A stretch of DNA of 63,641 bases, the filler included, from Jimgerdemannia flammicorona (lineage: Eukaryota): NCBI GenBank assembly GCA_003990765.1. It is 3 parts of 3 records of this genome, joined end to end, with 100 filler letters (N's around TTAATTAATTAA, not from the genome) between each part and the next. Parts side by side here need not be neighbours in the genome. Positions count along the whole stretch, not along the records: positions 21,251 to 42,399 come from RBNJ01001517.1; 2 more parts are not named here. One strand, 5' to 3'. Position numbers and translations under genes: made by a program. The notes below the pieces were generated by a model that was not told the DNA's origin, did no database searches, and was given only the letters and a program-made list of their open reading frames with translations. Below, piece after piece: positions 21,024 through 56,461 of the stretch; the first letter of the stretch is position 1; the number at the start of each line of letters is the position of its first letter.

Positions 21024-21150
21024 TAGTGCATCGCAACCCGAGCCGACCCGTGTACATATTTAACCCGACCCGGAATTATACGTCACCCGTCTTTAACCCG
21101 ACCCGGAATTATACGTCACCCGTCTTTAACCCGACCCGGAATAATACGTC
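21024..21150. mobile_element. Young hAT transposon end with 33-bp subterminal repeats, running into the gap
   Basis: TAGTGCATCGCAACCCG terminus followed by aacccgacccggaattatacgtcacccgtcttt units, the same unit as 58915-59135; CpG intact. Confidence 0.75.
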
Positions 21151-24006: not shown

Positions 24007-26086
24007 CTTGTTCAAGCCCACAGGTCAATGGATACAGGAATGTCTTAGATACTTAAGTCTTTGGCACCATATACCTTATCTCTATTTTGAGCTATATAGT
24101 GAGCATACATTTCCTTTTTTGGTCTTTTTTACTTAATGCTATCTAATTTAGTGCTCTATATACTATATGCTACTCTTCATGCCAAAATATATATTTATAT
24201 TTACTTTCATATATATTTGTACTCACTTTTTCTAATTATATCATATTTACTATATACTCTACTTTAATGGTACTCACTGTCAACTCCTGCTCTATATACT
24301 GATATGACCCCTCTAATATATCCAAAGGGCAACATGACCTCAGTTCTGCATCCTGTCCATTTTACTACAATATCTCTTTTATCAAACATATGCTCCACTT
24401 TTTGCAAGATAACTCTAATAATAATGATAATCCTGATATTGGTGCTCTGATTTTATATCTTAAAAATCTGCTTGAAGAAGCAACTTCTGCGTCTCCCCAA
24501 TACTCTTTGTGGCTCTCCACATAATGTCCAAGACCCCTGTTTGAGTGCAGTCTCCTACTCTAGGGCAGTCTATATCAGCAGCTCTGCTACTCCCTTCTAT
24601 TAGTTCCATTGAGGCCAGCATCATTGCACTGCAAAAACATACTTCTGCCCAGAACTGCCACATAAACAAGCTGCTCCACCTACTCCATATACATCTGGCT
24701 ATAACTATTTTTAATACCCCAGCCTTGACCCCAATAATTAAGATCTATCTTCCAGTAATCCTACAATCCCTGTTATGAATCAATCATTCATAGATCATGA
24801 CACCATATCTCTATCAGTGGCTACTACCTCTGTACCTTCTCTTTCAACAGTGATTCCTGCCTCTGTCTCCCCTGGCTCTTATGACCCACTTGGTAATCCA
24901 CAGAGTAAGTTTTTTCCTCTATCTACTGTCTCTATTACTGCCACCTCTCATACTATTATTTACAGTATCAATCTCTTTCTCAAGTATACTCATATCAACC
25001 AATACTTCTTAGCAGTGGTCATTGACAACTCCTTCTCCACCACTTCTCTTGTCTGATTTCTGAAGTATAATATCACATCTTCTGGCTCCTCTCCTGAGGC
25101 TCAATTTATTGAAACAATTGATGACTCCAGTATAAGGGTCATTCTGCAGAGACCTCTGTCTATTATTAAGAATCTCCTGGACATCCTAGCATTTCTCACT
25201 GTATTTCTCAGTTATTTCAGTATCCTCCAGAATGCTTATCCTAGGCTTACCAAATCTACTCTATTCTTTATATATGCTACTAACTTCATTCTACTCTCCA
25301 CATCATCCTCCTGGTCAATACTTCTTGACTATTACATCTTCTTTCATACTAAGCACTTAGCAGAGATTGTAAATATTAACATCTCTCCAACCTGGTATCA
25401 CTTATGGGCTTGCCACAACCCCAATTTATTTATGATGCTTAGTATATACTAATGTCTCTAAATACTGGTTACAGCTCCCAAGCCATTTAGGCTTCATGGT
25501 TCTCTATAGCCTTCTTATCTTGCCAAAGGCTTGACCTCATATACAGGGGATAGTATAGTAAACTGTCCCATATACTATACCTACAATGATATTACTAGTG
25601 ACAGATTTTCTGTAAAGAATTTTGACTGTTGGTAGAAGAACTGTTCCTATGCTCATATCTGTATACAGTGTAGCAAAGATCATTCATGATCTCACTGTTT
25701 ATATAATCTGCTTTTTTAGTCCTAGGAATTTGTCTCCACCCCACTCACCTGTATTCCTTCACCCACTCTGCTCACCTGCATTCCTCTATCCACCCCACCT
25801 ACCTGTGATCCTCTACCCACCCCCAATATATTTCTCTAATGACCAATCATACTTCTATCTGATGACACTACTCAGGCTATTCTATAGAGATTTTCACCAT
25901 TACCTACTACTTTCTACTCTACTATATTGACATACAAACTCCAACATTATCCCAATCAGTCTATCTCTCAGTCTGCCATCACTGCTATCACTCAAGGCAT
26001 ACTTAGTTTTGATGACCCTTGACACCACCTCTTAGCTCACAACCACTGTTTGGCTCTAGACCATCCAGATATCATTGCCTCTGATA

Positions 26087-26588
26087 GAGGAGGAAGAAGG
26101 CCCAGCGGGAGCCAAGGGAGTGAACCCAGAGCCAGTGTCAAAGTGAACGGAAGATATGTGAAAAGGCATGTATAAGGGGGATGAATAAAGAATGTAACCA
26201 AAAATGCATCAGCCATTTATTGCCACATAAAAACACAGTCCTTATATACAAAATATGACATTCCAAAAGAGAGGATGTGCCACAACTTGGGGCAAACTGA
26301 ATTAGGAACCACATGACCGCTGGAGATAGGTAGAGATAAAGGGGGAGCCAATCCCAGTTGCAGGATAAAAATCACAAACAATCACAAACAAAACAAATCC
26401 AAATTGAGATTAAAAAACATCTGCAGACCCCAGAGGGGTGAGCACGAGTGAGGGGTGAGGCCGAAACAGAGCAAGCTACAGCGAGCCCAAGCAAAGTGAG
26501 GGGCCGAAGGCAGCGGAGGGGAGCGGAGTAAGGCCGAGACCCCAGAGTGAGTGTGAGACTCTGGAGGGGGCAAGGATGTTTTTTAATC
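26087..26588 (-). repeat. 3' pseudo-LTR of the PLE
   Basis: ~500-bp direct repeat of 29741-30240, differing mostly by transitions. Confidence 0.93.
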
Positions 26589-28593: not shown

Positions 28594-29823
28594 TTAAGAG
28601 CAGGAGGCCTTCCCCTTCTCTCTGACTTTTTTTGAAGGCAGTGAGCCCAACGAACAGGAGCACACCCTGTCAGAGTGCCAGACCTTGCGGCCACAGGCTT
28701 TCATGCAGCCCTTACATTCAGGGGCACAGGTGGAGGAGGCGGAGGAGGAACTGGTGGAGGAGGCCAAAGGCAAGCGAGCAGCCAAGGGGGCAGCAGCATA
28801 AGGAACACCACCATGAGGACAGACAGACTTGGCTGGGTGCCAGTAGGTATGGTGGAGGCAACTGGAGCAGACAGCACAAGGCCAGGCCCTGACAGGGTGA
28901 GAACCAAGTTGGCGGCCATGCTTGGAGGCAGGGGGAATGGAGGAAGAAGCCTTAGTGGGGGAGGGGGACTGGGAAGAGGCCAATGAAGCCTGATTGGGCT
29001 TAGCGGGGGTCTTGGCGGAGGTCTTGGAGGGGGTCTTGGTAGCAGCAGTGGTGAAGGAATGAACCTCGGCATGAGCAGCAGCATAAGCCTTGGCACGAAT
29101 GGCCTCAGAGACTGAAACCTTGGGGGAGGTAGGCAGGGGAGCAGTGGCAGCAGTGCGAGCAGTGGCAGCAGCATGTGATGTCTCCTGCTTGTAAAGGCAA
29201 GCAACAAAAGAGGTGCCAGCAAGGAGAAAATGATGCACAGCATCGATATCAGTGGCAACAGAAGGAATGTCTTGGATGGCAAAGCCACAGAAGGGGGCAG
29301 CATCCAAAAGATGAGAGGAGGCGAAGGCCATGAAGGCGGCATAGGCACAGTGGAAGGAAGCAGAGGCAGTGGCGGTGGAAGCAGCGGTGGCATCAGTAGC
29401 AGCAAGCTTGGTGGCAGCAGTAGTGGCATGAACCTCTTCAGAGAGGGCTTGGTGATGGGCCTCAGGGAGAACAGAGTAGTGGACAGCAGGCAGAGCAATG
29501 ACATCAACATTATGGTGGAGACGAGCCTCCTTGGTGGAGAGGGCAAGAACTGACTGGAATTGGGAGAGGAGCAGACAACCAGAGAGATGAAGGTCCAAGG
29601 GGAGGGAAAGGATGGCAGACAAGACGTATGGCTCAAATGAGACAGTGGCAGGGGTGAAGGCAGGGGGTGGGGGAGGAGGAAGCTCCTCATCCATGAGCTC
29701 GTCAACAAGGATGGAGGTCCTGAGGGCAGGCAGTACAGCAGAGGAGGAAGAAGGCCCAGCAGGAGTCAAGGGAGTGAACCCAGAGCCAGTGTCAAAGTGA
29801 ATGAAAGATATGTAGAAAGGCAT
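28594..29823 (-). CDS. PLE ORF1 or N-terminal region (Ala/Pro/Ser-rich, CxxC-x4-H-x3-H motif, basic tail)
   Basis: 409-aa open frame starting in the pLTR; the inverted pLTR copy keeps ATG TCT TCC ATT CAC, so the ancestral start is probably ~29811. Confidence 0.65.
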   Translation of the reverse strand: MPFYISFIHFDTGSGFTPLTPAGPSSSSAVLPALRTSILVDELMDEELPPPPPPAFTPATVSFEPYVLSAILSLPLDLHLSGCLLLSQFQSVLALSTKEARLHHNVDVIALPAVHYSVLPEAHHQALSEEVHATTAATKLAATDATAASTATASASFHCAYAAFMAFASSHLLDAAPFCGFAIQDIPSVATDIDAVHHFLLAGTSFVACLYKQETSHAAATARTAATAPLPTSPKVSVSEAIRAKAYAAAHAEVHSFTTAATKTPSKTSAKTPAKPNQASLASSQSPSPTKASSSIPPASKHGRQLGSHPVRAWPCAVCSSCLHHTYWHPAKSVCPHGGVPYAAAPLAARLPLASSTSSSSASSTCAPECKGCMKACGRKVWHSDRVCSCSLGSLPSKKVREKGKASCS

Positions 29824-30514
29824 ATATAAGAGGAATGAACAAAGAACATAACTGAAAATGCATCAGCCATTTATTGCTACATAAAAACACAGTCCTTATA
29901 TACAAAATATGATATCCCAAAAGGGAGGATGCACCACAACTCAGGGTGAACCAAATTAGGAACCACATGACTGCCGGAGATAGGCGGAGATAAAGGGGGA
30001 GCCAATTCCAGTTGCAGGATAAAAATCACAAACAAATACACAAAACAAATCCAAATCGAGATTAAAAAACATCTACAGACCCTGGAGGGGTGAGCACAAG
30101 TGAGGGGTGAGGCTGAAATGGAGCAAGCTGCAGTGAGCCCAAGTGAAGCGAGGGGCCGAAGGCAGCAGAGGGGAGCAGAGTAAGGCTGAGACCCTGGAGT
30201 GAGCATGAGACCCTGGAGGGGGCAAGGATGTTTTTTAATCTTGATTTGGATTTGTTTTGTTTGTATTTATTTGTGATTTTTATCCTGTCACTGGAATTGG
30301 CTCCCCCCGAGTTATGGCACATCCTCCCTTTTAGGATGTCATATTTTGTATATAAGGACCACGTTTTTACGTAGCAATAAATGGCTGATGCATTTTCAGT
30401 TACATTCTTTGTTTGTCCCCCTTATACATATATGCCTTTCCACATGTCTTCCATTCACTTTGATACTGGCTCTGGGTTCACTCCCTTGGCTCCTGCTGGG
30501 CCTTCTTCCTCCTC
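29741..30514. repeat. 5' pseudo-LTR plus inverted extension, a palindrome centred on hairpin 30060-30240
   Basis: 30241-30514 is the reverse complement of the pLTR tail, with one internal deletion of ~50 bp. Confidence 0.92.
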
Positions 30515-32405: not shown

Positions 32406-33116
32406 TTGAACCTTGTTGGCATTTTTCTCATCTATGCTTTTTGACCTTATTGTCTATACTGGCTTTATTTGCTATATTGAACTTATTGGCCTTTTCTGTG
32501 GCCTCATCAGCTATATCTTATTACTGGCCATATTACTAACCTTATCAGTCTTATTGATCTCACCTATACTTTGGACCTTGGGTTCAGGTTTATTCTATTA
32601 ATCTTATTGCTGGGCTTGTATATACTGACTTTATCAGTCTTATTGATAGGCATCCTTATTATCATAATTATCTCAACCACTTGAGAGGGCTTCATAATTA
32701 TCTTGGTCACTTGGTCTTTTTAGCTATATTCATCTCTGCAATCTGAGAGAACTTTATACCTCTAATATCCAGATAGATGCCTTTGTTATAATTACTTTCT
32801 ACTATTAGAGAGGACTTCATTATCACTATTAGTGGGCTTCTTTTATAATAGGACTGCATTTTCTATTGCCAGAGAGCTATTATAGAGATACTTATCTTAG
32901 TACTCTAGCTCACATCTATGTTCATTGATATAGTATATAAACTAAAGGTATTCTAGCTGCTAATCAGGGCTCATAATCTGTTATGATAAATAGAAGAAGC
33001 AATTTATTTATTATACAAATTGTATGTTTTTAGATACTATAAATAATAATATATAAATAATGTAAAAAAAATTGATATAACGTCATATAAATACATATTG
33101 ACTTATAATCTCAATA
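32406..33116 (-). mobile_element. Copia 5' end: LTR (32979-33116), PBS and decayed gag
   Basis: TATTGAG...TAACA then GATTATGAGCCC (GGTTATGRGCCC-type fungal copia PBS) on minus. Confidence 0.75.
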
Positions 33117-33176
33117 TAGTGAAATCAAGCTAATAATCTATATATATTTACTCATTAATTCTCTCTTTTTGTTTAG

Positions 33177-33793
33177 ACAATAGTATCACTAAGAAGATAT
33201 ATATCCTAGCTAAGTCTCTGAAGCAGAATAAGATCTCAACTAAGCTGAATCTTTTTAGTATATCAGAACTATATAAAGTATCATATATAGCTACATAATG
33301 GAATTAAGCTAATTATCTGTAAGTATTTACTTAGCTATCTTCTATTTATATTTAGATAATAGTATCAGTAATAAAAAAGTATACATCTTAGCTAAGTATC
33401 TAAAGCAGAACATAATCTTGACTAAGCTGAATCTCAAAAGTATATCAGAACTATATAAAACATTATATATAGCTATATAATGAAATAAAGCTAATAATAT
33501 ATATATATTTACTTATTCATTATTTATTTATATTTAAACAATAGTATTAGTACTGAAGAGATATATACTATAGCTAAGTCTCTGAAGCAGAATATAATCT
33601 TGATAAAGTTGAATCTCTACAGTATAACAGAAATGTATAAAGTATTATATATGGCTATATAATGAAATCAAGCTAACAATCTATATATATTTGCTCATCT
33701 AGCCCCTGTTTATATTCAGATAATAGCATAGTACTAAGGGGGTATACACTCTAGTTGAGTATCTGAAACAAAGCATAATCTTTACTGATCTGA
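33177..33793 (+). pseudogene. RI-type LRR gene fragment, one 28-aa repeat per exon, hypermutated
   Basis: Exons 33177-33257 (81 bp), 33356-33439 (84), 33538-33621 (84), 33720-33793 (damaged); 98-bp phase-1 GT..AG introns (one AG>AA); e.g. NSISNKKVYILAKYLKQNIILTKLNLK. Confidence 0.85.
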
Positions 33794-33799
33794 GTATCT

Positions 33800-34436
33800 C
33801 AGAACTATGTAGTTATTGAGTTATATAGTGAGAATGATTTTATTCAATATACCTTATTACTTTTAAGTAGTAATGATATCTAATATGTGAAAATTTTTAT
33901 TAATTTCCCCCCCTTCTCCCATTCTTTGATTTCTATCATTACTATGAATTGTGATTTTGTATCATTAATATAGTATTGCAAAAGGTAGAAGTAATTCTAT
34001 CAGATTTATTTTATAGTACTTTTGGAGGGCAGCAGTATTGTTTCTGAGTAATAATAAAGCTTAGATCATTATTGATCATATGTATTCATAGTAACCTTGT
34101 TAGAGAATTTTATTTTATTTATTTTTATTTTTATTTTTTATTATTGAATTAGCTGTAGAGCTATATACTAGGAAATTTGTAGTCCCATCTATGGATCCTA
34201 TTTCAAAGTTGGTCAGAGATAAGAAAATATTAAGATATACATGAGCATGGTGGGCTCAAAAGGTGTTATAACTAGTTTAGCACATGAACTGCTGAATACT
34301 GAGATAGGATCTATGGTAGTATTGTACACCAACTCATTTGCCATCATAGAAAATTATACCTGGAATCATAGTATGACTACAGAATATGAGTGCCGATTGT
34401 CCAACCTCCATAACCTATCTAATCAATCACAAATTG
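33800..34436. repeat. Non-LRR part of the left arm of a diverged inverted duplication (partner ~36812-37448)
   Basis: Shared blocks, e.g. tttgtagtcccatctatgga / tccatagatgggactacaaa and atgactacagaatatgagtgc / gcactcatattctgtagtcat. Confidence 0.88.
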
Positions 34437-34764
34437 TCAAGGTAAAACATTATATGAGAATAGGATTGAAAGGGAATGATTGTTGATTGCATCACTTACA
34501 AAAATGAACTACACTTGTTGAAATCGAGGCATGCAATAAACACAGAGTCTTTGAGTACTCTTCGATTGAAACCCGGCCATGTACATGCAGCTGAACCCAG
34601 TAATAAAGGAATAACTGGTTGTAGTAGAAGGCGGCGACCGATCGGAGAGCAAAGACAACAGAAACATTATTGATTTTGTTCCGTTTTATTTTATAGGGAA
34701 GTCATCGAAGTTAAAATTGATGCCAATCAAGTCGATGGCCTTGACATAGTCCCCCCGGCGCCCG

Positions 34765-35379
34765 ATGACGAACCCGTCCAAGCGACCGATTCAACCGTTA
34801 AATTCATTCAAAACACCGTTGCGTCGACGTTGTCGATTGAAGCTGACGACTCAACAATCTGATCCCGCCCTCGAAAATTCTGAACCGATCTCGGCCCCGA
34901 TAACTCTTGGCAAGCTACTCCGCAGAGAGGTAAATGGGTTCATCGTCGCCAGCGACGATGGTGAAACTGCCACCGCATCCGGCTCAAAATCCAGGCAGAA
35001 CAAGCGTACTCCCCGTATCCTGCGTGATGACATCCTGGGTCGCCAGGCCGAATGGTGCTGTTACAAGACCGACAAGCTGCTGTGTTCACAGAGTCTCAAG
35101 GCCGAGGCGCAGGTGCAGCAGCCAAGCATCGTCACTGCCACCAGTATCACCACCACGACAATTATGATTAACGTGCCCGGCGAGAACGACGGCAAGAATG
35201 TGAACAGGATCTTCAAGAAGCTCTTGCATAAGGCCAATGGTGGGCTCGGCGGTGAACTCAAGAAGAGCACCAGCTGGAGCACTTTGATGTCAGCCAACTT
35301 CAGCATGACCAGTATCGATTATGCCCTTCCCACCACCAAGCAGAACGTTGTTGCGAAGCAATCCCTTGAGGTATCATAG
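34765..35379 (+). CDS. Hypothetical 204-aa protein or gene fragment
   Basis: ATG-initiated ORF, CpG-rich, with C/G-ending codon bias in its 3' two-thirds; no recognisable domain. Confidence 0.4.
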   Translation: MTNPSKRPIQPLNSFKTPLRRRCRLKLTTQQSDPALENSEPISAPITLGKLLRREVNGFIVASDDGETATASGSKSRQNKRTPRILRDDILGRQAEWCCYKTDKLLCSQSLKAEAQVQQPSIVTATSITTTTIMINVPGENDGKNVNRIFKKLLHKANGGLGGELKKSTSWSTLMSANFSMTSIDYALPTTKQNVVAKQSLEVS

Positions 35380-37448
35380 ACGGAGAAGTTGTCGATATCC
35401 CAAGACTCCCTCAGATATTCCTTATTTTCTTCCATCAGCTCTGCAACCTTTATCAATCTCCACCCGAAGCCCGCACTAAGTCTCCTAAGCTCTCGAGCAT
35501 CACACTAAAACAGCGTAGCCACATGCTCCGGTGGCATCACGTATTACAGTTCGCTTTGCTATCAACCATGGAAATACGCTCCTAGCTATCGACAGCGGCT
35601 ATTCGGGGCGCGATCGAGCCTTCGGACTGGCTCTCGGTGGATGGGTGGACGACGTAGGGTAGTTCGGATTTTGGTACGAATCGGTCGCAGCCGTTTACCA
35701 GTTGCAGAAGCACAACATTCAGGTACTCTGTGGGTTCGAGGTTTATACTACCATGTTCAGTCTCGAGACGACATGCGAGGCCTACTCAGCGCTGAATACC
35801 TCTTTCATTCATTTGGCACCAACGATTTCGAATAATGACTCCAGGACCGATTTTTCGTTGGGCAGCGATTGTAAATTGTCGAGGTGTGCGGATTCTATCC
35901 AGCAGAGTGTAAGTGCAGTAGGAGAAGTGTGTTGTAATTGAGATGCATGAGGGAAGACAGGGTATTAGGCAGTAATTGCTGGGTTGGTAGTGATTTCTTT
36001 TTCTTTTTTTTTTTTTTTTTTCCACAAGTTGGTGCGAACTATTTTGGGAGAATGCGGTGTGGAGTTTTTGTAAGCCTACACTATTGGGACTCGCCTACTC
36101 TTCATGCGTCCAGACTGTGTATATTCCCGAGATTGGTATTGCGCTGGCCATGCTTGAGCATGATGAGATCGAGCTGTACATCCACGATGATCCGAACCGG
36201 AGTGAGGCGCATCACCCAAAGGTATGAACACCAACCCCTAAGTTTAATCAAACATGACACACTCGCACCACCGCTCAAATCCCTCCCCCTCTCCCAGTTA
36301 CAGAACTGAAACCGTCTCGGACATTTACACGACGGACCCATACATATGCGCAACAACAATTAAAAATAGAATTCGTTGGCTTGTTCTCCGTGACGTAGAT
36401 CCTGAACCGCTTTGATCAACCTCACACGACATCAATGATACAATCTGGTACAACGCTCCAATTAATTCCACTCGTCCGAGCCTTGACTCAACCCGAAGAG
36501 TGGAGCTGTAGAGTTATGTGAGTCTTTTTTTTTTTGGAGGATGAGTGAGGGAAGAGTGATGTGCGCGTCTTTTTGCACTCAAAATTTCATTCGCACGTAA
36601 TCACGTTCGATATCCTGGCAGGCACCCACTCAACTATAGACCTGCAGACGACGAGCCACGGCACTTTTAAGGTGCCCAAGTCAGATGGCAAGGAGAATAT
36701 TGTTACAGAAGGTATTTTTGGTTTGGAAGCACCTGTGTGAATTTGATGAAGTCGAAAGAGTTCTGCCAACAAAAGAAGGACTGTTGACTATCGAAAAATC
36801 TGTGGTCTGATAACTTGTGATTGATCGGATAGGTGATGGACAGCACTCATATTCTGTAGTCATGCTATGATGCTGGTTATAATTGTACTATGATGGCTGT
36901 AGGATACCGCTATAGATACTATCTCAGTATCAGTGGTCAGTGCAGTAGTTCATGTGCTAAACCAGTCATAACACTATGCCCATTGGCATTGAGTCCACTA
37001 AGCTCAAGTGTGCCTTCATATTGTCATATCTCTGACCAACTCTAAAATAGGGTCCATAGATGGGACTACAAACCCCAGTGGCTCTACTGCAAGCTCAATA
37101 ACCAAAAAAAAAAAAAAAAAAAAAAAATTTAACAAGGTTACTTGGAATGCCTATTAAGGATGCAATATTAGCTTTATTTAACCTATAAACAATACTGCTA
37201 TCCTCCCAATATCACCACAGAATAAATCTGATAGAATTGCATTCACATTTTGCAAAACTATATTAATGCTGCAAAATAATGTCTAAAATACAATCCAGAG
37301 TAATGGTAGAAATAAAAAGATGGGAGGGGGGAACAATTATAAAAATTTGCATATTAGATATCACTACTACTTGTAAGTGATAAGGAACATCCGGAAAAAT
37401 CGTCCGCACCACATAGTCACACTCAAAGTTTACATGGTTCTGAGGCAC

Positions 37449-37860
37449 TTTAGAGATTCAGATCAGTTATGTCGCGTTCTGCTTCAGAGACTCGACTAGG
37501 ACGCGTGTCCCATCAGCCCCAATGCTGTTGTCTGAGGGATGGATGAGCAAACACACACAAATCGTGAGCTTGATTCCATTGCACAGCCACACACAATGAT
37601 TCACACAGTTCTGACATACTTTCGAGATTCAGCTCAGTCCTGGTCGTGATCTGCTTCAGAGACTCGGCTAGGGTGCATTCCCCCTTCTTGCCAATGCTGT
37701 ATTCTGAACATGAACAGGGGATGGATGAGCAAACACTCACATATCGTTAGCTTGATTCAATCACGCAGCCGCACACAATAATTAACACAGTTCTGATATA
37801 CATCTGAGATTCAGCTCAGTAGGTCGCGTCCAGCTTCAGAGATTCTGCTAGGGAGCGTGA
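37449..37860 (-). pseudogene. RI-type LRR gene fragment, paralog of 33177-33793, little transition damage
   Basis: Exons ~37860-37802 (partial), 37703-37620 (84 bp, YSIGKKGECTLAESLKQITTRTELNLE), 37531-37449 (83 bp, NSIGADGTRVLVESLKQNAT then frameshift); GT..AG introns of 98 and 88 bp. Confidence 0.87.
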
Positions 37861-39691
37861 CTGTGTAGTAATTTGTCAGGGCGGCCTCCATTGACAACAG
37901 CAGAATATGACATTGACGCTGGACGAGGCGTACTTGCCGACGATACAACGCAGGTCCAGGCTGTAGACTGGCGAAGGGCGGTGTTTTTTGAGCCGGAGCC
38001 AGATTTTTTTTTTTTTTTTTTTGGAAAGTCAACGGTCTATTGCGGTTGTGGGTGATGGCATAATTTTTTGATATGTGCTGATGACAAAAGACCCCTGACC
38101 AGCTCCTTTGTCGAATTTGTCAAATTGTCACACGCGCTCGTAAAAAATACTCATCATAGCAATATTCTACTTCGAATCTGGCTCCGGCATCTTGCAATGC
38201 CGTGACTCGTCACCGGCAAGCATATGGTTGGGTGGAAACATGCCAGGGTAACAAACATAGTTGCATGAAAAAGAAATTTTGTCTCGAAAATGACGCGCAC
38301 ATCTACGGCAAATAGAAATTATCTGCTCGGAGTGCCTTTGTAGAAGAAGGAGATGGATGTAAATGAATCAGAAAAAGGTTATAAAACCCTGCTGTCATGC
38401 ATCCCGGTGACTGAATATAACCTGGCAAACGAAATATAACGTACCCAGTGGGCTGACGGATTTCTTCGCGGAGTGGCGCATGTGGAAACAAATAAACGGT
38501 ATGTTCGCAAATGAATGCTACATGGTGTGGTTATTTGGGTTATGAAATGGGTATGGGGCGATTCGGCAACGTGTAATGAGAGCTGTGAAGCGAAAAGCTT
38601 TTAGCTTATAAGAGTCGCTCATCAAAGAGCCGAAATCAAAGTCATATGCCGTCACTGCTTGTGTCGCGCCGATAGGTGATAAAGGGTTGGTAATATGGTG
38701 GAATATTATACGCGCTGAATCCATTGTTTAAGGATATCATTGCCGCATTTTATGGTGTTGGCGGTTGAATTAATTGGTATTTTCTACCGTACAGGAGTGT
38801 ATCAACAGTTTTTATATTTCAACACGGCTACTGTGAAACTGATGTCGAGGCTGTGATGTCACTAGAGTATGGCGTCACCATCAAACCATCGAGGCCCACA
38901 AGCCATTCGCCACCATCGTCGTCATCACAGCGCTCCATCCAATGGGCAATCGCACACTTGTTAGAAATTTTTAATCTGACATCAAACTACTGAATTGCAT
39001 AATTTTTCTCTCGCACCCACCATAATGACTAGGTCCGGGCATCCGATGTGATTCTCCCCTATTGGCACAGATTGCTGTTGCTCCTGTCATATGGCTGTGG
39101 GTAGGGCTTTCAGGATACCAGGATACCAGGGGCGATTCCAGGACACCGGGTTACCAGGTCACCAGGGGCGAAAGAGTGCCGGGGAGGGATAGGGCGGCGG
39201 GCACTATAAAGATACAGCTGGTTTTTTATTAATTATAAAGTTATTAAATTAATAAAATAAAGTATTATAATAATAGATAATAATAAATTGGAGAAAAATA
39301 TAATAAATATAATGGTGTCCTCCTAAGGGTCTAAATTTATATCGGGTTTTCCAAACGCAAATAAGGAAGTGCGAGTAACGAGGTTGGCGAATGACCACGT
39401 GATGGGGTTATAGAAAACAGACAAAAGAAACTTCCCAACTTCAATCGCTGTCAAGCGACAATCTATTGTCCACACTCCAAGTTGCCACCCGCTGCAAATA
39501 TTCGTCCAACAGCCAGTCGTCGCACGCGCAAAGCGTCGCTCTTAGTCATCTCTCAGCCGACCGTCGTCCCCCACAGCTAATTACCCCTTGGCCACTATCG
39601 TTAACACAGCACCTCACCTCAGTCAGCTACAACTCGTCATAGGCGAGCAGGCAAATTATTGCGGTAAATCGTTGCTATTCGACATCCCCAG

Positions 39692-42626: not shown

Positions 42627-45600
42627 AACACTTTTCTTTAATAATATTTAGGTTATATAAACTTTAAGCAACTCTTTTGATATCATTTTTGGAGATAAGA
42701 TATTAACAACATGGTAACTATTGAGTATTCTGAGATGTATGCTGGGCAGGGTGGCCCTAGTGTGTTCAACTGATAGTATGTAGAGTGGAGCCATAACTTG
42801 GGGGAAAGTATAAGGGGCTTATTGGCAGGAGGACATAGAAGGAGAGAGGGCAGCATTAGAGGACAAGAGACTAAGAGGATAAGTTTCACAGATAAGGTAG
42901 AGAGAGGTCAGCTGACAGTAATGACTGAGCTAGAGGGCTGGCTGAGGAAGGGCAAGGAGACAGCAGAGGCTGTAGGTTCTGAGAGAGCAGCCTATGAAAG
43001 TAAGAGCAGTAGGGCTGAGAGAGTAGTAGCTGAGGAGAGTAGGACTGCTGATAGTGGGGGGACTACTAATCTAAAAAAAAAATCCAGATGTGACAGTTGA
43101 TGGTAGATTTGGACAGAGGGGGGCATGAGGCCCAGAGTTCTGAGATAGTATGATGGGACTAGTGGTAGTACTGTTACTTAGAAAATTGAGGTCTAAATCT
43201 ATTATCACATTGTACTTCCAAGACTTAGTAGTTATAGTAAGAATAATTCTGGGGCTTCTGGCTCAGGAAGTGAAGGGGACCACTTCAGTGAAGTTTTTGA
43301 AGAGACAGAAGGAGTGGAGGTTGGCTTCAAGCAGGAGGAAGTGCTGTTGAAGATGATAGAGAAGAGAGTGGTAGTAGGGGGGGTGGCAATCCTCATAATA
43401 TAGTGCTTGCACTGAGATCCTCAAGTGGTACAGTTGATGGTACTGGATATACCAACCATATCAAAGGAAATAGCCAGGAGGTTGATTGTGAAGGCTATCA
43501 AGAAGTATGAGGAGATTGTAGATATTGGATTTTGGATCTGGGAGGGCACTGAATTCAGGACTAAAGATATGAATATCAGGGTGTAGCTAGTGGGTAAGGA
43601 GAATATGGGGAAGATGAGAAACTGGCTAGCAGTTCTAAAGTAGAGCCCTGTGGAATGCAAGGTCTTGCAGATGAAGGAGATGCTGGAAGAAGAAAAGAAC
43701 TTATTGAAGATATTGAAGGACCTGGCTGGAGCTGTGGAGAGGAGGCAACTGACCTAGAAGGAGTATGAGACCAAGACAGTTTTCAAGATTATCAATGACA
43801 AGAGGGTGTAGCTGGATCAGGCTGCCTGAGAGCAGGCATAGGGGAGGCAGATTCAGAAGGAGCTATTGGTAAAGTTGGGAGGGGGGATGGCAGAGGGGAC
43901 CACAGCTGAAGATACTGATTTGTGAGCAAGTATTTGGATGGGAGAGGAGGGGGTGACTCCAGAGGTGCCCCAGAGAGCAGGAGGTAGTGTTGGATTGAGT
44001 GTGGTCATGGAAGATATAAAGATAATCAAGAGGGAGCATCCTCAGTATAGAGTGCTAGATGGGGCTACTGGTGAGAAGGAACTACAGAATGTACTGGAGG
44101 AGGATTGAGATAAGTTGGTGAGATGGAATACTTAGGGAGGATGGGTAGAGGGGGTGAAGAGTGTGGCTAAGAGAGTTGCAGAGACTGTGGATAAAGAGAA
44201 GTAGCTGTGGAAAACACTAGAGAATGTAGTGGTAGAAGAGCTGGGAGAGGACTTTTGGGTACTAAGCAAGAGACACTGGGGTGAAATTCTACATAGTGAG
44301 AAGGTGCTAAGAAAAATTCATGATGAGATAATGGTAGCATTGCTGGAGGCTGAGGCCTATCAAATAGATGATAACAGAGAGACAGTGCTCAGAACAATTG
44401 TGAATAATCATATAGCATATATGTGGAGTCTGAGGAAGAGACTGAAAAAGTAGCAGGTTGTATATAAGGAGTACCAGTCAGAGATAGAGGCTGTGAATGG
44501 GGTAGACTGTCAGGAGACCTTAGTGGCACTGAATGCTCAGCAGAGAGAGGCAGATGAGATTGCAGCAGAGAGGAACTTAGATCTTATGGGTGATGAGATG
44601 AGTATGAAATTATAGGATAAGCACTTCCTTTCAAAAAACATTATTCAATATGAACAGTGCAACTAGAATCTTCTCTTTGAATATCAATGGACTAAGGGGT
44701 GTGATGAGATGATGAAATATCTTTAGCTGACTAAAGAGGCTAGATGCAGATCTTTTTTTATTATAGGATGTAGGTTATGATGTAGACTTGGACTTACTGA
44801 ACTGAATGAAGGAATGGAGTGGTATAGTAGTATGGCAGGGTCAGGTGGGCATTCTAGTCAGGAAGGGGGTGAGAGACATTGGGGATATTGGATATTAGGA
44901 GAGTTGATTGGTGTGAAGAGTGTGAAAGAGGCTGGGTTAGAGTCTCCTAATTGTAGAATCTTGCTATTGCTCAGCAGAAAGGTGGGAGCAAGTGGATTAG
45001 GTCCAGAGTTTGTGAGAGGCTGGTGTTCTGACAAATGTAGGGATTGACTATCTGGGAGATAACTTTAACATGATATGCAATAATAGGTTAGACAGGACTA
45101 ATAGAGAGAGGGGTATAGTAGGAAGGAGTGGAGAGATGGAGAACTAAGAGAAGATTGAGAGACTGAGTTCTTTGGTAGATACCAGGTAACTTGGATGAGT
45201 AGATCATAGGGTCTATACTCACTAGATGATAGAACTGAGATTCTGAATAGACTGGGTATTGATAGCTGAGTACTGGGGTGTAGATGTCTGGAGTGTGATT
45301 GAGACAGTCTGGTGCCCTTGATCAGACCACTGGGAGTTGCTGGGCAGAGTGAGATTTGGGGGTAGTGGAGATGAGTCTGGACATTAGTACCTGAATACCA
45401 CATTACTGGAGGATAGTATCTTGTGGAGAGAATGGGTGATAGATGTTAGTACTAAGGTTGTGGGCTGGAGGGCACAAGGGGAGATTGGGGATCATTAGCA
45501 GTAGTTGAAATCTGATACTCAGTAGTTTTGGAGTGAGGTGAGGAGAGGAAGGGGGGCCTAGCAGAGACAGTATGCTAAGTAGGCTTCATAGAGACTGGTG

Positions 45601-48385
45601 ACTCTACTGGAGAGATAGACTGGATCATTGGAGGACTGCAGGATAGGAGACTAGAGGATTCAGTGGATCCAGCAGGAGGTGGAAGAACTGAAGGGGCTGC
45701 TTAGATAGGAGGAGAAATTGCAGATGAAAGAGCTAGTTGCTCAGATGATAGGGTATAGAGGAGGGAGAGCAGCCTACTAAATATTTGTCAAGGCTACTAT
45801 AGGCAAGAAGGACAAGGCAGTAATGGGAAAGAGTGTTGAATAAGGTAGAGGATATAGTGACTGGGATACTGGAGATCTTGGGTCTATTGAAGTCTTACTA
45901 GAGATGGCTGTGGAGTAAGAAGAAAGGGAGAGAAGATGCCCTAAGCATCAAAAGACTACTAGAGGATTGGCACCTAGATTTGGTAGCAGGTCTGGGTGAA
46001 CTTGGAGCCCTGATAAGTAGAGAGGAGATATATCAAGTCTTGGTGATGATGAGTATAGAGATAGTCTCTAGAGAGAATGGATTGCCTTGGGATTTTTAGA
46101 AGAAGATGGCTGATGTTGAGATTGTATTAAAAGAGATAGTGTAGATATATAAAAAGGTTATCATCTCAGAGTTCTGAATTGGAGAACAGTATCTGGGGCT
46201 TGTTGCTCTGTTGTATAAAGACAAGGAGAGAAGAGAGGATTGGAAGAACTAGAGACCAATCATGCTTCTGGATATGGATCACAAGTTGGTGATAAAGATT
46301 TTAGTAGTCAGGCTATAAGGGGTGGCTCAGCAGGTGCTAGGAGTAGAGTAGAGGGGCTTTATTGGGAGCTAGTTGATTCAAGATAGAATGGCATAGGTCT
46401 ATGGTATTATTGAGAGTACTCATGCAGCCAGGGTTAATAGTTTCCTATTCTTTCTGGATTAAGAGAAGGTATATAACAGAGTTTGGCATAGAGTATTGAA
46501 GCAAATAGAGATTTCTCCAGAGTTTAGGAGATCTTTGATTTGTCTATTAGAGGAGAGTTAGGTAGCTATTATAATAAACAGGTACAGGAGAGAGTTCTTC
46601 CCCCTGGGCAGAGGAGTGCTGCAAGGAGACCCACTGTCACTGATTCTCTATACTCTCTTATTAGAGCCCTTGTTGGACAGAATTCAGTGCAGAGTTGAGG
46701 GTTTGAACATTTTAAGAGTGAACTGGAAGATTGGGATCTTTGCTAATAATATAATAGTCAGGCTAGGCTCTGTAGAGGATGTGGCAGTACTGAAGAGTAC
46801 AGTGAAATAGTATGAGAGATGTTTGGGTGCTAGGCTCAATTGACATAAGTGTGAGACTCTGGCCCTAGATAGAGGGATAGTTGGGGGTAATGTGATCAGT
46901 ATAGTAGTCTTAGCTGATAAAGCAGTCTGCTACTTGGAGATTTATTTTTCAATATATGGTTTCCTACTGCCTTGTGGCTGGTGGGAGCAGTAGCTTCTAG
47001 CTTAGAGAAATGTTCTTTTGGGGTAGAGAGGCTGGTATACATATCTCTCTGGTAGGGAGAGTGATGGTACTGAATGTATACTGGCTGCTGAAGCTATAGT
47101 ATATTGAATATTACTTGGAATTTCCAGTATAGGTGGTTAAGAGATTGTTGAAGATAGTTAGGTCATGGATTTGAGTGGAATGGTGGAGTCAGATCAGCTG
47201 GAAAGTATTGATATTATCTGTTGACAGAGATGAACTGAGCCTGGTGGACTTCACCAAGTATCTGCATTGCTTGAGAGTATAGTGGCTGAAGTAAGCAAGT
47301 GAATTGTGAGGTCGAGAGTAGGTACCTCTTATATAGAGAGTATGGGAAGTTCAGTGCTTCCCCCAGGACATAACTGGTGACCTGCTCTCTCTGGTGGCTC
47401 TTGAAGGAAGTCAGAAGATACACTATAGAGAATTCTGGTAGAGAGTGGTGGATAGTATCCACTGTATTAGTCTCCAGTAGAGGGGAGATAAGAGAGAGGA
47501 GAAATGGGGACCACAGATGTAGAGATAGGACTGCCTACTATTAGGAGATATACTGGTGGAGAATTTTTAGCTAGAAGATAGCATAGAATATCTATGTATG
47601 AGAGTATGGGAGGGATTTGTGGTCAGAGGCATAGCAGGGGGTAGGGATCAGTGAGAAGTGGGACTGGAATAGTATCTGATCTTAGTGCAAGCAGGTGGTA
47701 AGATAGCTCTCTTCCAAGTTCTGAGTAGTATGGTAATAGATGCTGAGATATAATATAATACTGAACTATTGGTCAGGTCACTTGATAGAAGGGGGGGATT
47801 TGGAGTGTGAGGAGTATCTGGATGTTAGACAGATGAGAGGTATAGTATAGACCTCTGAGTATTAGCTTAGAGAGTGCAAGGTTCTGGGTAATTTCTGAAG
47901 AGCCATTGAGGACTAGCTGGAGTTGTGACCTTTGAGGAGAGGGGAGGGTAGAAGGTAGGATATGTAATCTCTAGCATAAGTTGGTAGAAAGAGTTGGAGA
48001 TAAGTGATTGACTTTAGGGTAGGCTCTAGCTATTTGGATTAGGCTTGTCAGACATTGGCTCTATGTATTTGAGAATGGTTAATGATTAGTGGTTGGGGTG
48101 AGGATTGTGTGATGAGAGTGGCTTCTGCTGGATATCTTGAATGATTAGTGGTGGGGGTGGGAACTGAGAGGGGAAATCTATTGGAGATTTGTAGAATGTA
48201 TTTACAAGAAGAGTAGGGGGAGAGTTTGAGTCACTGGAGAGTTGGTAACTCTCTGAAGGGATAGAGAGAGTGGGGGGATGAGGGGTCTATATGAGATTAG
48301 GTGATGGGTGGACCTGTTCTTTGTATTGATATAATATAGATTGGATGGTAATCAGTAATAAAAGCAGAAGTCTAAGTGACTATAA
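42627..48385 (+). mobile_element. Full-length L1/Tx1-like LINE, decayed, inserted in the copia LTR
   Basis: 5' AACACTTTTCTTT; ORF2 MNSATRIFSLNINGL (44650); LQGDPLS; 3' end AAGTGACTAT followed by an A/TA run. Confidence 0.92.
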
Positions 48386-48800
48386 ATATATATATATATA
48401 TATAATATAAAATATACAACCTATTCAACTTTAATAAAATTGCCTCTCTTTTTACAATAAAGGTTATGAACTCCACTAGCACTAAGTGGCTAGAGTAAAT
48501 ATATATCTCTTTAATATATACTATACTAGAAATATCAGATGACTAGCCTAGTAATATAGATATACTAATTACAAGTATTTCTACTAATAGATACAGGAAA
48601 TACAGTTTCAGTTATAAGTATAAATATAGCCAAGAGATCTATCTCAATCTTCAATAGAAATAATTATGTGATCTGGGTATTCTATATAATGAATCTTCTT
48701 AATAAATATAGCTTGATAGAGTATATGAAGCTATAAGTGCTAATTTAAGATTATGATACTACAAATGATTATCAAGCATTATATAAGATCATATTTATAC

Positions 48801-51800
48801 AACACTCTTTCTCTAGTAACATTTAGGTTATACAACCTTTTAGCAATACTCACAATATAGTTTTTGAAGAGAAGAGTCTAGTAATATAGTAACTAACATA
48901 CATTCTGAGGTGTATACTGGGCAGGGTGGCCCTAGTATATTTAGCTGGTAGTATGTGGAGAGAGGCCCTAGCTTGGGGGGGAGTATGAGGGGTCTGCTGG
49001 CAGGAGGTCATAGAAGGAGAGAGAGCAGGGTTAGAGAACAGGGGACAGGGAGAGCAAGTTTTGCAAATATGGAAAAGGAGGGTGACTGGTATCTGGGCTG
49101 GAGGGCTGGCTGAGAAAGGGTAAGAAGACAGTACAGATGACCAAGCATAAGGGTGTGGCCCTTGGTAGTAGGAGCAGTGGAGCTGAAGATATAATAGCTG
49201 GGATAAGTATGATGGCTAATAGCAGTAGAACTGCCAATCTAAAAAAAAATCCAGATATAACTGCTGATAGGAGGGCTGAGAGGATGGGGCTTGGACAGAT
49301 GGGAGACCTGGCAGATAGTGTAACAGGCCTGGCAGTGACCCTATTACTCAAGAAGTCAATCTCAGAATTTGCTATTACTTTGTGCTTCAGGGGCTTAGCA
49401 GTAATGGTGAAAATGGTGCTAGGGCTGATTGTTAAGCAAGTGACTGAAGCTGCATCTGTGAAGTTTCTGAAGGGGCTAAAAGGAGTGAAGGTTGGCTTTG
49501 AGGAGGCTGGGCCATTGGAGGAAGCACTGAAGGCTGGACTGAAGGTTAGAGAGGTATGTGTTCTGATAGTGTGCTGCTTGAGGTAGGACCCCAGGGTGGT
49601 ACAATTGCTGGTAAAAGGGGTGTCCACAGTGACTGCTGAGGAGACAAAGAGGAGAGTTGAGGAAGTCATGGTCAAGTATAGAGAGGTGGTTGATGTTGGG
49701 TTCTGGGTCTGGGAGGGGACCTCATTTCAGACTAGAAATGTTGATATTAGAATTCAGTTAGCAGGGAAGGAGGCTACTGAGAAGGCTAGAGACTGGCCTT
49801 TAGTTATGGTCTGAGGGGCTTTCTTGTACAAGATGACAAGGGTGAAGGGGAGTGAGGAGGAGGAAGAGAATCTGTTGGAGGTATTGGAGGAGCTGAGCAG
49901 TACTGTAGAGCAGAGGGCAAAGGCTTAGAAGGTGTATATCAAGTCAATATATTTGGAAGTAGTGAATGGAAAGAGGATTTAAATGAATAAGGGGCTATGG
50001 GAAAGGTCTCAAGAACATAGAAGGCAGAGAGAGCTGTTGGTAAATCTGGAAAAAAGAGTAAAGAAAGATACTAGTGATATTGAAATCATAGGGGGAGCCA
50101 AGGAGAGTGTCTGGGCTAGCAATGATAGAGAGAATACAGTGAAGGGGCCAGATGTGAGAAAGGAGGCAAAGAGATGTGACCCTTATGCAGATGATATCTT
50201 TGAGGTCTGGGAGCCTTCTCTAATTCCTATGTCTCTTATTAGATGAGGTCCAGCTTCAAGAGGTAGAGTGGTGGAGGATGTATCTATGTGGAGAGCCCAG
50301 TAAGTATACTTTAGAGTCCCTGAGGTAGCAAAGAGGGGGCAGGTGGTGGCAGTGAGCAAGGATAAACTGGTGGATGTTCAAGAGGAGGAGTAGAATGAGG
50401 CTACAAGTATAAGGGCTGATATCTTAATACTGGATGGAGGGTGGCCAGTGACTCCCAGGGAGAAGGAGGTGGGAAATCTGCTGTAGATGTGCAAGATGAT
50501 GAATAACTTTGCAATAGAGGAGTTGGGGGAGGTAGACCTGTGAGTAATGAGTGACAAGTATTAGGTATGTGTTCTGTATAGTGAGAGTGTGGTGGAGGCA
50601 TTAAAGGCAGAGATTCTTGTAATTTTTCTGGAGGAGGAAGGATATGAGGTTGATAAGGAGAGGGAGGCTGGGCTGGCAGTTACTGCTGGTGAGAGGGCTG
50701 CTTTCTGTTGGGCAGAGCAGTATAGATTACAGCTCTGGCAGGAGGTCTGCCTAGAATATTATGAGGAATTCGAGGAGAAGGAGGATGGGGAGCTCACTGA
50801 ACTTCTGGTTGAACTAGAGACTAAGAGGACTAAAGAGAAGGAGGAAGCTGCAGAATATATACTAGTCCTGGATCAGAAGGAGATGAATATAGGGCAGTAG
50901 AGGACATGCTTGCTATTATATATTATTCCTTATGAATAGTATAACCAACATTTTTTCTTTGAATATAAATGGGTTATGGGGTTTGTTTTATTGATAGAAC
51001 ATTTTTGCTTAGCTGAAGGTATTGGAGGCTGATTTCTTTCTTTTGTAGAATGTCAGATATAAGAATGATTTGAATAAACTGAAATGGACAAGGAAATGGA
51101 GAGGGGAGGCAGTTTGGCAGAATGAGGTTGGGATTCTGGTCAGGAGGGGCAGAGGGGAGGTACAAGATATATAGAACTGGAGAGACAGACTGGTTTGGGG
51201 AGAGTGGATTCACACTAGTCAAGAACTGGTTACAGTTGGATCCTGCTACTATTCTATAGTGCAGAGTGAGTGTGTAGAGTGAGTGAAGAGTCTCCAGGAG
51301 GGAGAGACTCTGGCAGAGACTAGAGTAGATGTGCTTGGCAGAGACTTTAATATGGTCAGAGATGTACTGTTGGATAGAACTAATGGAGGGTGGGGGGCAG
51401 AGAGTAATAGTAGAGGCTTGGAGATATGAGAGGAAGTAAAAAGGCTAAGTGCTTTGATGAATACTGGTAGGGGATTTTGGAGTGATAGAAGAGTATATAC
51501 ACATTGGGTGAGTAGACTGGAGACAAAGATAGACTGGATGCTGACAGCAGACTACTGGGGTCTGGATGTTTGGAGATCACTAGAGGCTGAATGGTATCTA
51601 TGGTCTGATTATTGGAGATTGCTGGGACAGGGTCATTTTGGGGGGAGTGGGGATAGCTGGGATATTGGTACCTCAACTACTCCCTGTTAGACAATAGGGT
51701 ACTATAGGATAAGTGGGCTAAGGATATTCAGCAGAGAGTGGAGGCATGGATACAGGAAGGTGCATAGGTGGATAAGGCTGAAAGAGGCTGCTAGGGTCTA

Positions 51801-54644: not shown

Positions 54645-54964
54645 GAGATTATATTTATATTGTCAAATTCTCAAATAAAGCTCATAATATATATTATAAC
54701 AGCTCATGAGATATAAGAAACTCTATACAATCATCATATGTAAGTTTCTATATCAAATCAATTCTATCTAAAATCTTAGCTATTCAATATGAATAAATAT
54801 ATTAGTTGTATTGATAATCTGATAAATCAAGTGAATTTTCTCAATATATCTGCAGATTGTATTAGTAATAAAAAAAAGATTATAACACTCACAAGAGGAC
54901 TTTCAGATATATATAATATTGTTATTGTAGCTATATATAAGAGCAGTAGACTTATGAACTATAT

Positions 54965-56461
54965 TGTAATGTGCTGGCTCAATGGAGGCAAATTACAAGG
55001 TTGGGGGTTGATATAGTTTAGCTTGAGCCCCCAGTTACTTTGTCAAAAAGCAACAAAATGTTCTAAGATTCCTGAGATCCTTGGTGTTTAGCGGTATAAT
55101 AGTCAAAGCTGGATATCTGCGAGTGGTTTCCTTATTGGGACTGTTCTCTGGGTGTAGTGGTGATTTGTATGTGAATGGGTTTCCTTCTTAGGTCAACTGG
55201 AAATGCCATGATAATTTGTATAGCGCGACGATCTCCAAAAGTATGCAATTTCTGGGTGTGACGGTCTGGCAATTTAGCGGTTCTCCTTCTTGGGTGGTGG
55301 GCAATCTTCATGTAGCGCAGCGATCTCTGTATAGTGTGACAGGTTTCCAAAAGTATGCGGTTTCTGGCGGATGACTTGATTCAGCTCTCTAGGAATTGTA
55401 TGGCATGGATTCTTCTATAGGCTCACTGGGAATAATGAAGAACTCGGATGGCTCTTCTGGGAATGTGAATAACTTGAAAGTGGCAGACAATGTGGATTTG
55501 GCAGGCTTCTTGAAAATGGTGGCTTAACTGGGAATTAACTTGGATGGTGCGAATTCTTCCTGAATCGGCAGGCTCTAACTGGGAAACGGGATGGCGCGGA
55601 TTCTTCCTGAATCGGTGGGCTTCTGGGAAATAACTCAGGTGGCATGGATTCTTCTAAATCGGCAGCTTTGACTGGGAATATGAACTACTGGCAGCGTTCT
55701 TTGGGAAAGGGTCTCTTGGTAAAGTTACATCAAAGACTGGCTTCATTTGCATGGAGTTACATCAAAGACTGGCTTCATTTGCATGGGGTTACGTCATAGA
55801 CTGGCTCTACTGCAAAGTTGCATCAGAAACTGGCTTGAGCAAGGTGGCTTTCTCTTAGGTGGTGGAAAGGCAGAAATCTTCAGGCTTATCTGATAAGCGA
55901 ACCAAGGGTTTCTCTTCAAAAGGCAGTGAAGTTCTTCTTGAACTTAGGCGGCAAGTCTTCAGGCTTATCTGGCAAGCGAACCAAAAACGTAACAAACTCT
56001 TCTTTATATTGGAAAATAGACCAGAGTGGGAATAAGGGGACCAATTGCTCAATCTTTAGAGGCTTCTTTGGTTTGCACTTCAATTCAGACTGAGGTTTTA
56101 TTCACTCTTGCCTCTGGGGTAATTTATACAAGTTGGTTGCTATCTGGTTACTATGTGGCTAACTATAGATTTGCTATCTTTGGTAATGTTTAGGTGTGTC
56201 CTCTGGGTACAGGTGTATCCACAGGACATGAGTGTGTCCAGGACATGAGTGTGTCTGCAGGACATGAGTGTGTCCGCCGGACATGAGTGTGTCCTCAGGA
56301 CACAGGTAAACAATCCTGATCTAGTGTCTTGGCTAATTATAAGTGTGGCAGGCATAAGTAACTATGATACACTGGAAGTCACGTCATGCTGAGTAAGTAT
56401 GCTAATTGTTCGTATCATCTGGCTAAGTTATAATTCAGGTGATATGTTTTGGTTTGTTACA
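54965..56461 (-). mobile_element. Solo LTR (1497 bp) inserted in copia gag
   Basis: TGTAA...TTACA termini, ATAT duplicated on both sides, removal restores the gag frame; TATAAA (~56125) and AATAAA (~56100) on minus; internal ~19-bp and 33-bp repeats. Confidence 0.8.

Follow-up and report, generated by a model that had tools for sequence, protein, structure and literature searches.

What kind of gene leaves behind arrays in which each protein repeat appears to occupy an exon of its own, and what has become of that gene? The question is raised by a 63,641-nucleotide stretch of DNA from the fungus Jimgerdemannia flammicorona (assembly GCA_003990765.1), hereafter the window, which joins three parts of the genome with filler letters between them. 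Two arrays of ~182-bp repeats lie in the part taken from record RBNJ01001517.1, and a reading made from the sequence alone (the sequence-only reading) had proposed that they are fragments of a receptor system that diversifies by shuffling exons. The arrays encode leucine-rich repeats (LRRs) of the ribonuclease inhibitor (RI) type. Very probably, they go back to one fragment of a gene that was built from exon-plus-intron cassettes and encoded repeats of the cytoplasmic, RI-like kind (LRR_6-type); an inverted duplication placed copies of the fragment on either side of a 2.4-kb spacer, and both copies then decayed. The relic has no function of its own; its value is that it flags a gene design in which one RI-type LRR occupies one symmetric exon and is amplified together with its intron.

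The exon-plus-intron cassette, with its symmetric phase 1 and its RI-type repeat, is confirmed in the window arrays. Tandem Repeats Finder, self-comparison and exon translations agree on ~182-bp arrays at both places. On the plus strand, the left array (33114-33793) has a period of 182, 3.8 copies, 76% matches and a score of 714, and comparison of the repeats with one another found 182-nt copies in register (n=3). The right array (37449-37860, minus strand) holds 2.3 cassette units, and its repeat pair 37536-37638 and 37718-37820 is 86% identical. One unit consists of an 84-nt phase-1 exon carrying one RI-type LRR and an 88-98-nt GT..AG intron. The features of the locus, from left to right, are as follows.

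33105-33793, plus strand: left LRR cassette array; 3.8 units of 182 bp, beginning mid-intron; hypermutated, ~24% GC over 33001-34000.
33177-33257, plus strand: left exon 1; shortened to 81 nt by a 3-nt deletion; AG..GT; frame open; replacements such as G>S, E>K and T>I.
33356-33439, plus strand: left exon 2; 84 nt; AG..GT; frame open.
33538-33621, plus strand: left exon 3; 84 nt; frame open; acceptor AG changed to AA.
33720-33793, plus strand: left exon 4; 74 nt; 1-nt deletion; 3' end shortened; stops after the shift.
33794-34439, plus strand: left arm past the array; intron-like start GTATCTCAGAACT, then non-coding DNA common to the right arm.
34440-36807, no strand assigned: single-copy inter-arm spacer; 2.4 kb; up to ~51% GC over 35001-36000.
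34750-35379, within the spacer: open frame of 209 aa.
36808-37448, minus strand: right arm past the array, the counterpart of 33794-34439.
37449-37531, minus strand: right exon 3; 83 nt; 1-nt deletion, then in-frame TAA and TGA.
37532-37619, minus strand: right intron 2; 88 nt; GTATGT..CAG; branch-site-like AAGCTCAC.
37620-37703, minus strand: right exon 2; 84 nt; AG..GT; 28 open codons; the sole locally intact exon.
37704-37801, minus strand: right intron 1; 98 nt; GTATAT..CAG; contains GAATCAAGCTAAC.
37802-37860, minus strand: right exon 1; 59-nt stump cut at its 5' side; frame shifted, with a stop; outer breakpoint of the right arm.

Translated on these strands, the units yield a 28-residue peptide of the type xNSIGxxGxxxLAESLKQNxTLTELNLx, exactly as the sequence-only reading had described, and the LRR pattern LxxLxLxxNxIGxxGaxxLaxxLxxN is visible in the aligned exon translations, including those of the mutated left arm. 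Each exon is laid out as two bases, 27 codons and one base, which places every intron in phase 1 (1-1). When the exons are joined in silico, each junction regenerates an Asn from the split codon A|AY, and this residue is the conserved Asn of the LRR repeat; left exons 1-4 so joined provide 93 open residues, and right exons 2-3 provide 48. The donor is GT in all seven window exons and the acceptor AG in six of the seven (that of left exon 1 at 33175-33176), the sole exception being the exon that starts at 33538, where AG has become AA at 33536-33537. The introns start with GTAT(A/G)T, carry an internal GAATCAAGCT(A/C)AC and end in (C/T)AG, and the landmarks previously picked out in them (GTAT.TCAGAACT, GAATCAAGCTAAC, GCTCAT and TTCAG) were all located. 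The claim that the introns resemble each other as closely as the exons do likewise holds: identity in the right unit pair is 77/88 for the intron versus 63/83 for the exon, and in the left pairs, which span three full units, 79-82% versus 72-77%. An Rfam scan of 32500-38500 at E<=1 detected no known RNA in these conserved introns, and five introns that were folded were not more stable than their shuffles (z -0.96 to +1.84).

This anatomy suggests how the parent gene would have been organized and how it could have grown. We infer a functional parent assembled from cassettes, each comprising an 84-nt exon that specifies exactly one 28-residue repeat and a short intron, of 88-98 nt in the window and 63-95 nt in relatives. 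Each intron splits the conserved Asn codon after its first base, and splicing would rebuild that Asn; because the phase is 1-1 throughout, any number of cassettes stays in frame. Exon and intron are copied as one unit, which makes adjacent cassettes into direct repeats that are long and nearly identical. Between such repeats, unequal crossing-over or replication slippage would gain or lose whole LRRs, unequal crossing-over being the classical explanation for arrays of this kind, and joint copying with unequal exchange of cassettes would account for introns that are as similar as the exons. That cassettes diversify a receptor in this way, as had been proposed, is a further inference.

The two arrays, which the sequence-only reading described as fragments, are the arms of one inverted duplication and thus count as one fragment rather than two loci: 36808-37820 aligns in reverse to 34439-33421 with 68.2% identity over 1071 columns (E 1.4e-112). 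Each arm is composed of the array and ~640-1000 bp of non-coding DNA, and together they enclose the 2.4-kb single-copy spacer. The arms have decayed along different paths. In a global alignment, 154 of the 266 substitutions between them are a right-arm C/G opposite a left-arm T/A, and 29 run in reverse; G+C stands at 27.6% in the left arm and 40.9% in the right. Changes of the C-to-T type affect 29/40 CpG, 74/163 CpA, 28/76 CpC and 23/131 CpT sites, so CpG has the highest mutation rate of these contexts, and directional substitutions make up 103/147 in the tandem part versus 51/119 in the distal part. The composite index for repeat-induced point mutation (RIP) is 1.22 in the left arm, which we take to fall outside the RIP-like range by the usual thresholds. 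Because of the C-to-T hypermutation, the left exons show G>S, E>K and T>I replacements. One left acceptor has been lost. In the right arm, the intact exon 2 is caught between a 59-nt out-of-frame stump and a frameshifted, stop-bearing exon 3. Both arms are dead: they are pseudogene relics, and neither copy can encode a protein. The sequence of events would then be that a fragment was cut from a cassette gene, was duplicated in inverted orientation and subsequently decayed, the left arm through a burst of C-to-T and G-to-A changes that ran in one direction, favoured repeats and lowered its G+C content to ~27%.

Two further observations concern the same region. A smaller inverted pair (36558-36755 and 38111-38303; 70%, 199 nt) straddles the right arm, and the region has therefore undergone more than one rearrangement. 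Within 2 kb there are also three homopolymer tracts of T or A, 21-26 nt long (35998-36021, 37102-37127 and 38004-38024); one of them lies in the right arm, and the matching place in the left arm is occupied by a degenerate T-rich stretch.

Inverted arms around a spacer are also what would be expected if 33114-37860 were a transposon with kilobase-long inverted arms that had captured a gene fragment, the arrays being its cargo. The setting lends this explanation some credence: the window is rich in repeats, with 31 non-diagonal self-matches >=200 bp, an open reading frame (ORF) on the minus strand at 60308-61075 has a weak match (E 5e-4, below the cut-off) to DUF659, a family that occurs in hAT-type transposases, and in the metagenome contig L001 an LRR cassette gene is followed, 1.3 kb downstream, by a copia-type gag and Pol beta-barrel (L001:1844-3070). 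However, the arms end unequally, both ends falling inside the array and the left arm outreaching the right by ~270 bp (1.5 units); neither terminal motifs nor target-site duplications were identified; the spacer ORFs scanned contain no transposase domain; and the window holds neither a second copy of the block nor a third copy of the arm sequence. The spacer ORF at 34750-35379 matches no Pfam family and no protein in the protein atlas. On balance, we consider a transposon with captured cargo rather unlikely, and retain the duplicated and decayed gene fragment as our interpretation.

Homology to LRR proteins was established with the intact right exon. The query for phmmer was a 75-residue read-through that joins 12 intron-derived residues, the intact exon and another 34 intron-derived residues, and the library comprised 1.84 billion representative proteins. 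At a cut-off of E<=1e-3, 48 proteins matched, the best at 9.7e-16. The best matches are ORFs of 67-158 aa that align through the intron-derived parts as well: P0001 (E 9.7e-16) covers query residues 2-67 and P0002 (E 7.3e-15) residues 12-67. With 28.9 and 33.8 bits, respectively, both exceed the LRR_6 gathering score of 23.4. P0006 (E 1.1e-9) contains 13 stretches matched by LRR_6, and this family (PF13516) was found in 16 of the 18 long matches scanned. A BLASTP comparison of the window unit with P0097, a protein of J. flammicorona itself, aligned repeat on repeat, with a best E of 9e-5 (a single comparison).

The same cassettes exist in other DNA. A motif test identified 21 of the 48 phmmer matches as exon-intron read-throughs with a homologous intron start (ORFs of 64-163 aa), and six of these 21 carry a second LRR 52-76 residues downstream, equivalent to a cassette of 156-228 nt; the sources of 14 of the 21 were looked up and are soil-catalogue, ENA, NCBI and Logan records. 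In JGI metagenome contigs, a back-translated scan gave 17 matching stretches, among which six loci were confirmed. Four of these loci were parsed: all 14 of their 84-nt LRR exons are followed by a GT donor and 12 are preceded by an AG acceptor, the introns measure 63-95 nt, and the introns are about as similar to one another (60-81% identity) as the exons are (69-80%). Metagenome and window introns have in common the start GTATGTCAG and a branch region of the type (A/G)ATCAAGCT(A/G)A(C/T). Whole exon-intron units are duplicated here too, as anticipated: the window has a period of 182 bp, and L005 repeats in tandem every 147-162 bp and also every 303 bp, the longer period representing two cassettes whose intron types alternate. 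L006 duplicates part of L005. The cassette family is common in environmental data, and members beyond the window's dead copies do occur, contrary to the outcome that would have refuted the sequence-only reading: P0097, P0118, 21 environmental ORF clusters with open exons and six loci appear to be intact.

Several results weigh against the interpretation of the window as a fragment of a spliced, cassette-built LRR_6-type gene. Splicing is predicted from splice signals and reading frame, and a word-based search of sequencing runs returned one run sharing 0.08 of the words, with no RNA run listed. The apparently intact relatives are gene models or ORFs, all of them predictions, and in one of the environmental loci, L005, the third LRR exon is interrupted by an in-frame TAG. 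Pfam searches with single exons and with the 75-aa read-through gave nothing at E<=10, so that membership of LRR_6 is transitive; a PDB search with the exon profile returned a tropomodulin/leiomodin LRR at a non-significant E of 0.13; and a word-index search of longer proteins with the 75-aa window unit produced no candidate. A PDB sequence search with one exon found nothing, and the exon boundary cuts the 24-position LRR_6 model. Taken at face value, the failure of window exons to match any Pfam model, along with the stops or frameshifts in both arrays, might suggest a non-coding satellite of 182 bp whose likeness to an LRR is accidental. Such an explanation is scarcely credible: E-values reach 9.7e-16 across a library of that size, splice donors and acceptors are preserved at nearly every exon, three AT-rich left exons have stayed open and join in frame through the Asn codon, and homologous cassettes with open exons are found in other DNA. 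The cassette-built gene fragment accordingly remains the reading that we favour.

To what, then, were these repeats attached? The window fragment comes without the 5' part of its parent gene. Pfam analysis of the 17 window ORFs of >=121 aa found no NACHT, NB-ARC or other N-terminal domain of an LRR gene; the matches were a kinase at 50-1195 and, at 60308-61075, weak DXP_synthase_N in addition to the DUF659 described above. When 170 proteins, NACHT-LRR proteins among them, were compared with the window by tblastn, LRR-type matches were confined to the two arms, and the other matches, kinase P0049 and the window's own spacer ORF P0050, are unrelated to LRRs.

Relatives are more informative. A search with the intron-free relative P0014 retrieved named LRR proteins of Endogonales and Mortierellaceae. 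P0097 (J. flammicorona BC936DRAFT_140501; 457 aa) combines zf-MYND with LRR_6, and P0118 (Endogone sp. BC937DRAFT_86469; 769 aa) combines a protein kinase with LRR_6, both architectures being confirmed by Pfam. The matches from Mortierella and other Mortierellaceae have LRR families alone, one of them labelled 'RNI-like protein' by UniRef. In the metagenome, L003 and L005 begin with an exon of ~130 residues that is 59% identical between the two loci and is followed within ~300 bp by LRR exons; this first exon has no significant Pfam family, no homologue in the window and no match in the protein atlas. L005:9437-11270 and L003:2625-4035 represent a fuller gene, in which an ATG exon precedes 84-nt LRR exons.

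These attachments bear on the proposal that the window carries fragments of a fungal family resembling the NOD-like receptors (NLRs), in which cassette duplication, recombination and possibly exon skipping create recognition diversity. Symmetric cassettes can indeed be shuffled in frame, the family abounds in the environment, and in 31 environmental repeat units positions 1, 3, 6, 10, 24, 28 and 29 vary on a scaffold that is otherwise nearly invariant. NACHT domains accompany LRR_6 in some matches (P0015 and many ENA entries); NACHT-LRR_6 proteins are frequent among the matches, and those with names come from animals or Prymnesium. Variable positions on a conserved scaffold, however, are usual for LRRs, which counts against reading them as a receptor signature, and the exons of relatives are under net constraint, with a pooled ratio of nonsynonymous to synonymous change (pN/pS) of 0.51 (19 within-locus exon pairs, which are non-independent, the motif-based choice of exons biasing the ratio downward). 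The window retains no NACHT or NB-ARC relic; the N-termini identified in fungal relatives are zf-MYND (P0097) and kinase (P0118), with LRR families alone in Mortierellaceae; and in L003 and L005 the LRR exons are immediately preceded by an exon that belongs to no known family. Furthermore, in the available text of PMC12258605, fungal NAIP-like NACHT proteins are reported only with HEAT repeats. Because the window lacks NACHT and NB-ARC, and because its fungal relatives carry zf-MYND, a kinase or an unassigned N-terminus instead, the NLR framing of the sequence-only reading is without evidence, and an origin in an NLR-like family appears very unlikely. A fragment of an LRR_6-type cassette gene is the reading that fits these observations.

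Divergence between repeat copies across the window is dominated by transitions, with transition-to-transversion ratios of 2.1 to 53 over 11 pairs: the 5-kb pair 5370-10311 and 53775-48806 differs by 903 transitions versus 148 transversions, mostly at CpA/TpG, and the 0.5-kb pair 26086-26588 and 29740-30240 by 53 transitions versus a single transversion. CpG has almost gone from the window repeats. J. flammicorona belongs to the Endogonales, within Mucoromycota, and this setting provisionally differs from the ascomycete one that AT-rich decay suggests. In the portions available of a 2025 kingdom-wide survey, RIP-like signatures are enriched only in ascomycetes (PMC12543289), and it is against this survey that a transition-dominated, RIP-like pattern in a Mucoromycota context is notable. 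The ~5-kb repeat copies (6001-10000 and 43001-55000) display GC skews of about -0.45 and +0.47, C being twice as frequent as G on one strand. Strand-specific deamination was considered as the cause and dropped, as the AT skew does not fit. ORFs in these repeats match no Pfam family.

Elsewhere in the window, the kinase ORF (50-1195, plus strand) has one relative in an index of 5.8 billion proteins, a J. flammicorona protein with 88% identity across 60% of the query; its tblastn match falls into two pieces that overlap (83-772 and 762-902), pointing to an intron or a frameshift. A 33-nt tandem unit (ACCCGGAATTATACGTCACCC...) recurs at 21059-21150 (2.8 copies) and at 58916-59134 (6.6 copies), the latter array adjoining 12/13/25-nt CCCTGAACCCGAC-type repeats, and the 33-nt arrays and the CCCTGAACCCGAC-type repeats may be the ends of one element family.

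The cassette design also has a practical consequence. Cassettes of this kind confuse gene callers, and LRR families of Mucoromycota may therefore be under-counted and mis-modelled. Such mis-calling shows in a Jimgerdemannia protein flagged LOW QUALITY and in environmental 'proteins', of which at least 21 clusters are exon-intron read-throughs. The former, P0005 (RUS30588.1), has recurring non-LRR stretches of ~29 residues between its repeats, which look like retained repeated introns. P0044 and P0046 likewise alternate LRR units with recurring non-LRR stretches and resemble a repeated-intron read-through of a different lineage; mis-called cassette LRR genes may thus be common in public protein sets.

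Should the family turn out to be large and variable, mycorrhizal Mucoromycota would have in it a candidate recognition system on a scaffold unlike that of known fungal NLRs. In its broadest form, the idea is that Endogonales-type soil fungi possess a large, environmentally widespread family of RI-type LRR proteins made from 84-nt phase-1 cassettes, in which gain, loss and exchange of cassettes, and perhaps splice-skipping, vary the binding surface; that MYND, kinase or new N-termini stand in the place of NACHT; that the family is the fungal counterpart of the brown-algal LRR-ROCO and animal NLRC-type arrays; and that the same genome possibly has a RIP-like C-to-T process outside Ascomycota. 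We regard this combination as speculative, and it is probably not correct as a whole. Our literature search found no description of a cassette-built LRR gene in Mucoromycota or other fungi, and no report of NLRs with LRRs, or of expanded LRR families, from Mucoromycota or Endogonales, although the supplementary tables of PMC12258605 could list LRR architectures.

How does the window compare with systems already known? Closest are the Endogonales proteins P0097, P0118 and P0005, which have the same consensus, IGxxGAxALAEsLKqNtTLteLxL, and the same 28-residue repeats. P0097 and P0118 are whole gene models with an N-terminal domain, whereas the window holds a broken, domain-less fragment, and the inter-repeat stretches of P0005 differ in sequence from the window intron. 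Described fungal NLRs resemble the window in having arrays of highly similar units that can expand and contract, a likeness that accords with general statements in the available part of PMC10197012. They differ in repeat type: NACHT or NB-ARC is combined with WD40, TPR, ankyrin or HEAT, unlike the RI-type LRR of the window, which also shows no nucleotide-binding domain. As the sequence-only reading had stated, described fungal NLRs mostly use WD40, TPR or ankyrin repeats, which is consistent with the available text of two papers, where the repeats are WD40, TPR and similar (PMC10197012), or HEAT for NAIP-like NACHT proteins (PMC12258605), and LRRs go unreported.

The RI-type repeat class is one that the window has in common with animal ribonuclease inhibitor and NOD/NLRC3 genes, and LRR_6 proteins named NLRC3 are among the matches. 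In those animal genes, an LRR exon holds one repeat in 84 nt or two in 171 nt, and growth is by exon duplication. Animal NLRs, however, carry NACHT and effector domains, and none was seen in the window. A further likeness is with the LRR-ROCO genes of brown algae, for which the accessible portion of PMC11378527, citing Zambounis et al. 2012, describes one LRR per 72-bp phase-2 exon, exon shuffling, diversifying selection and alternative splicing. There, as in the window, one LRR occupies one exon, the phase is uniform and exons are duplicated in tandem ('exon shuffling'); LRR-only loci occur, and the arrangement has been proposed as a source of recognition diversity (PMC11378527). The two differ in detail, the algal genes having 72-bp exons, phase 2, 23-residue repeats and a ROC-COR GTPase (PMC11378527), and the window having 84-nt exons, phase 1, 28-residue RI-type repeats and no ROC-COR. 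Since genes with one LRR per exon have been described in brown algae and are familiar from animals, the cassette design of the Jimgerdemannia fragment is already known in kind.

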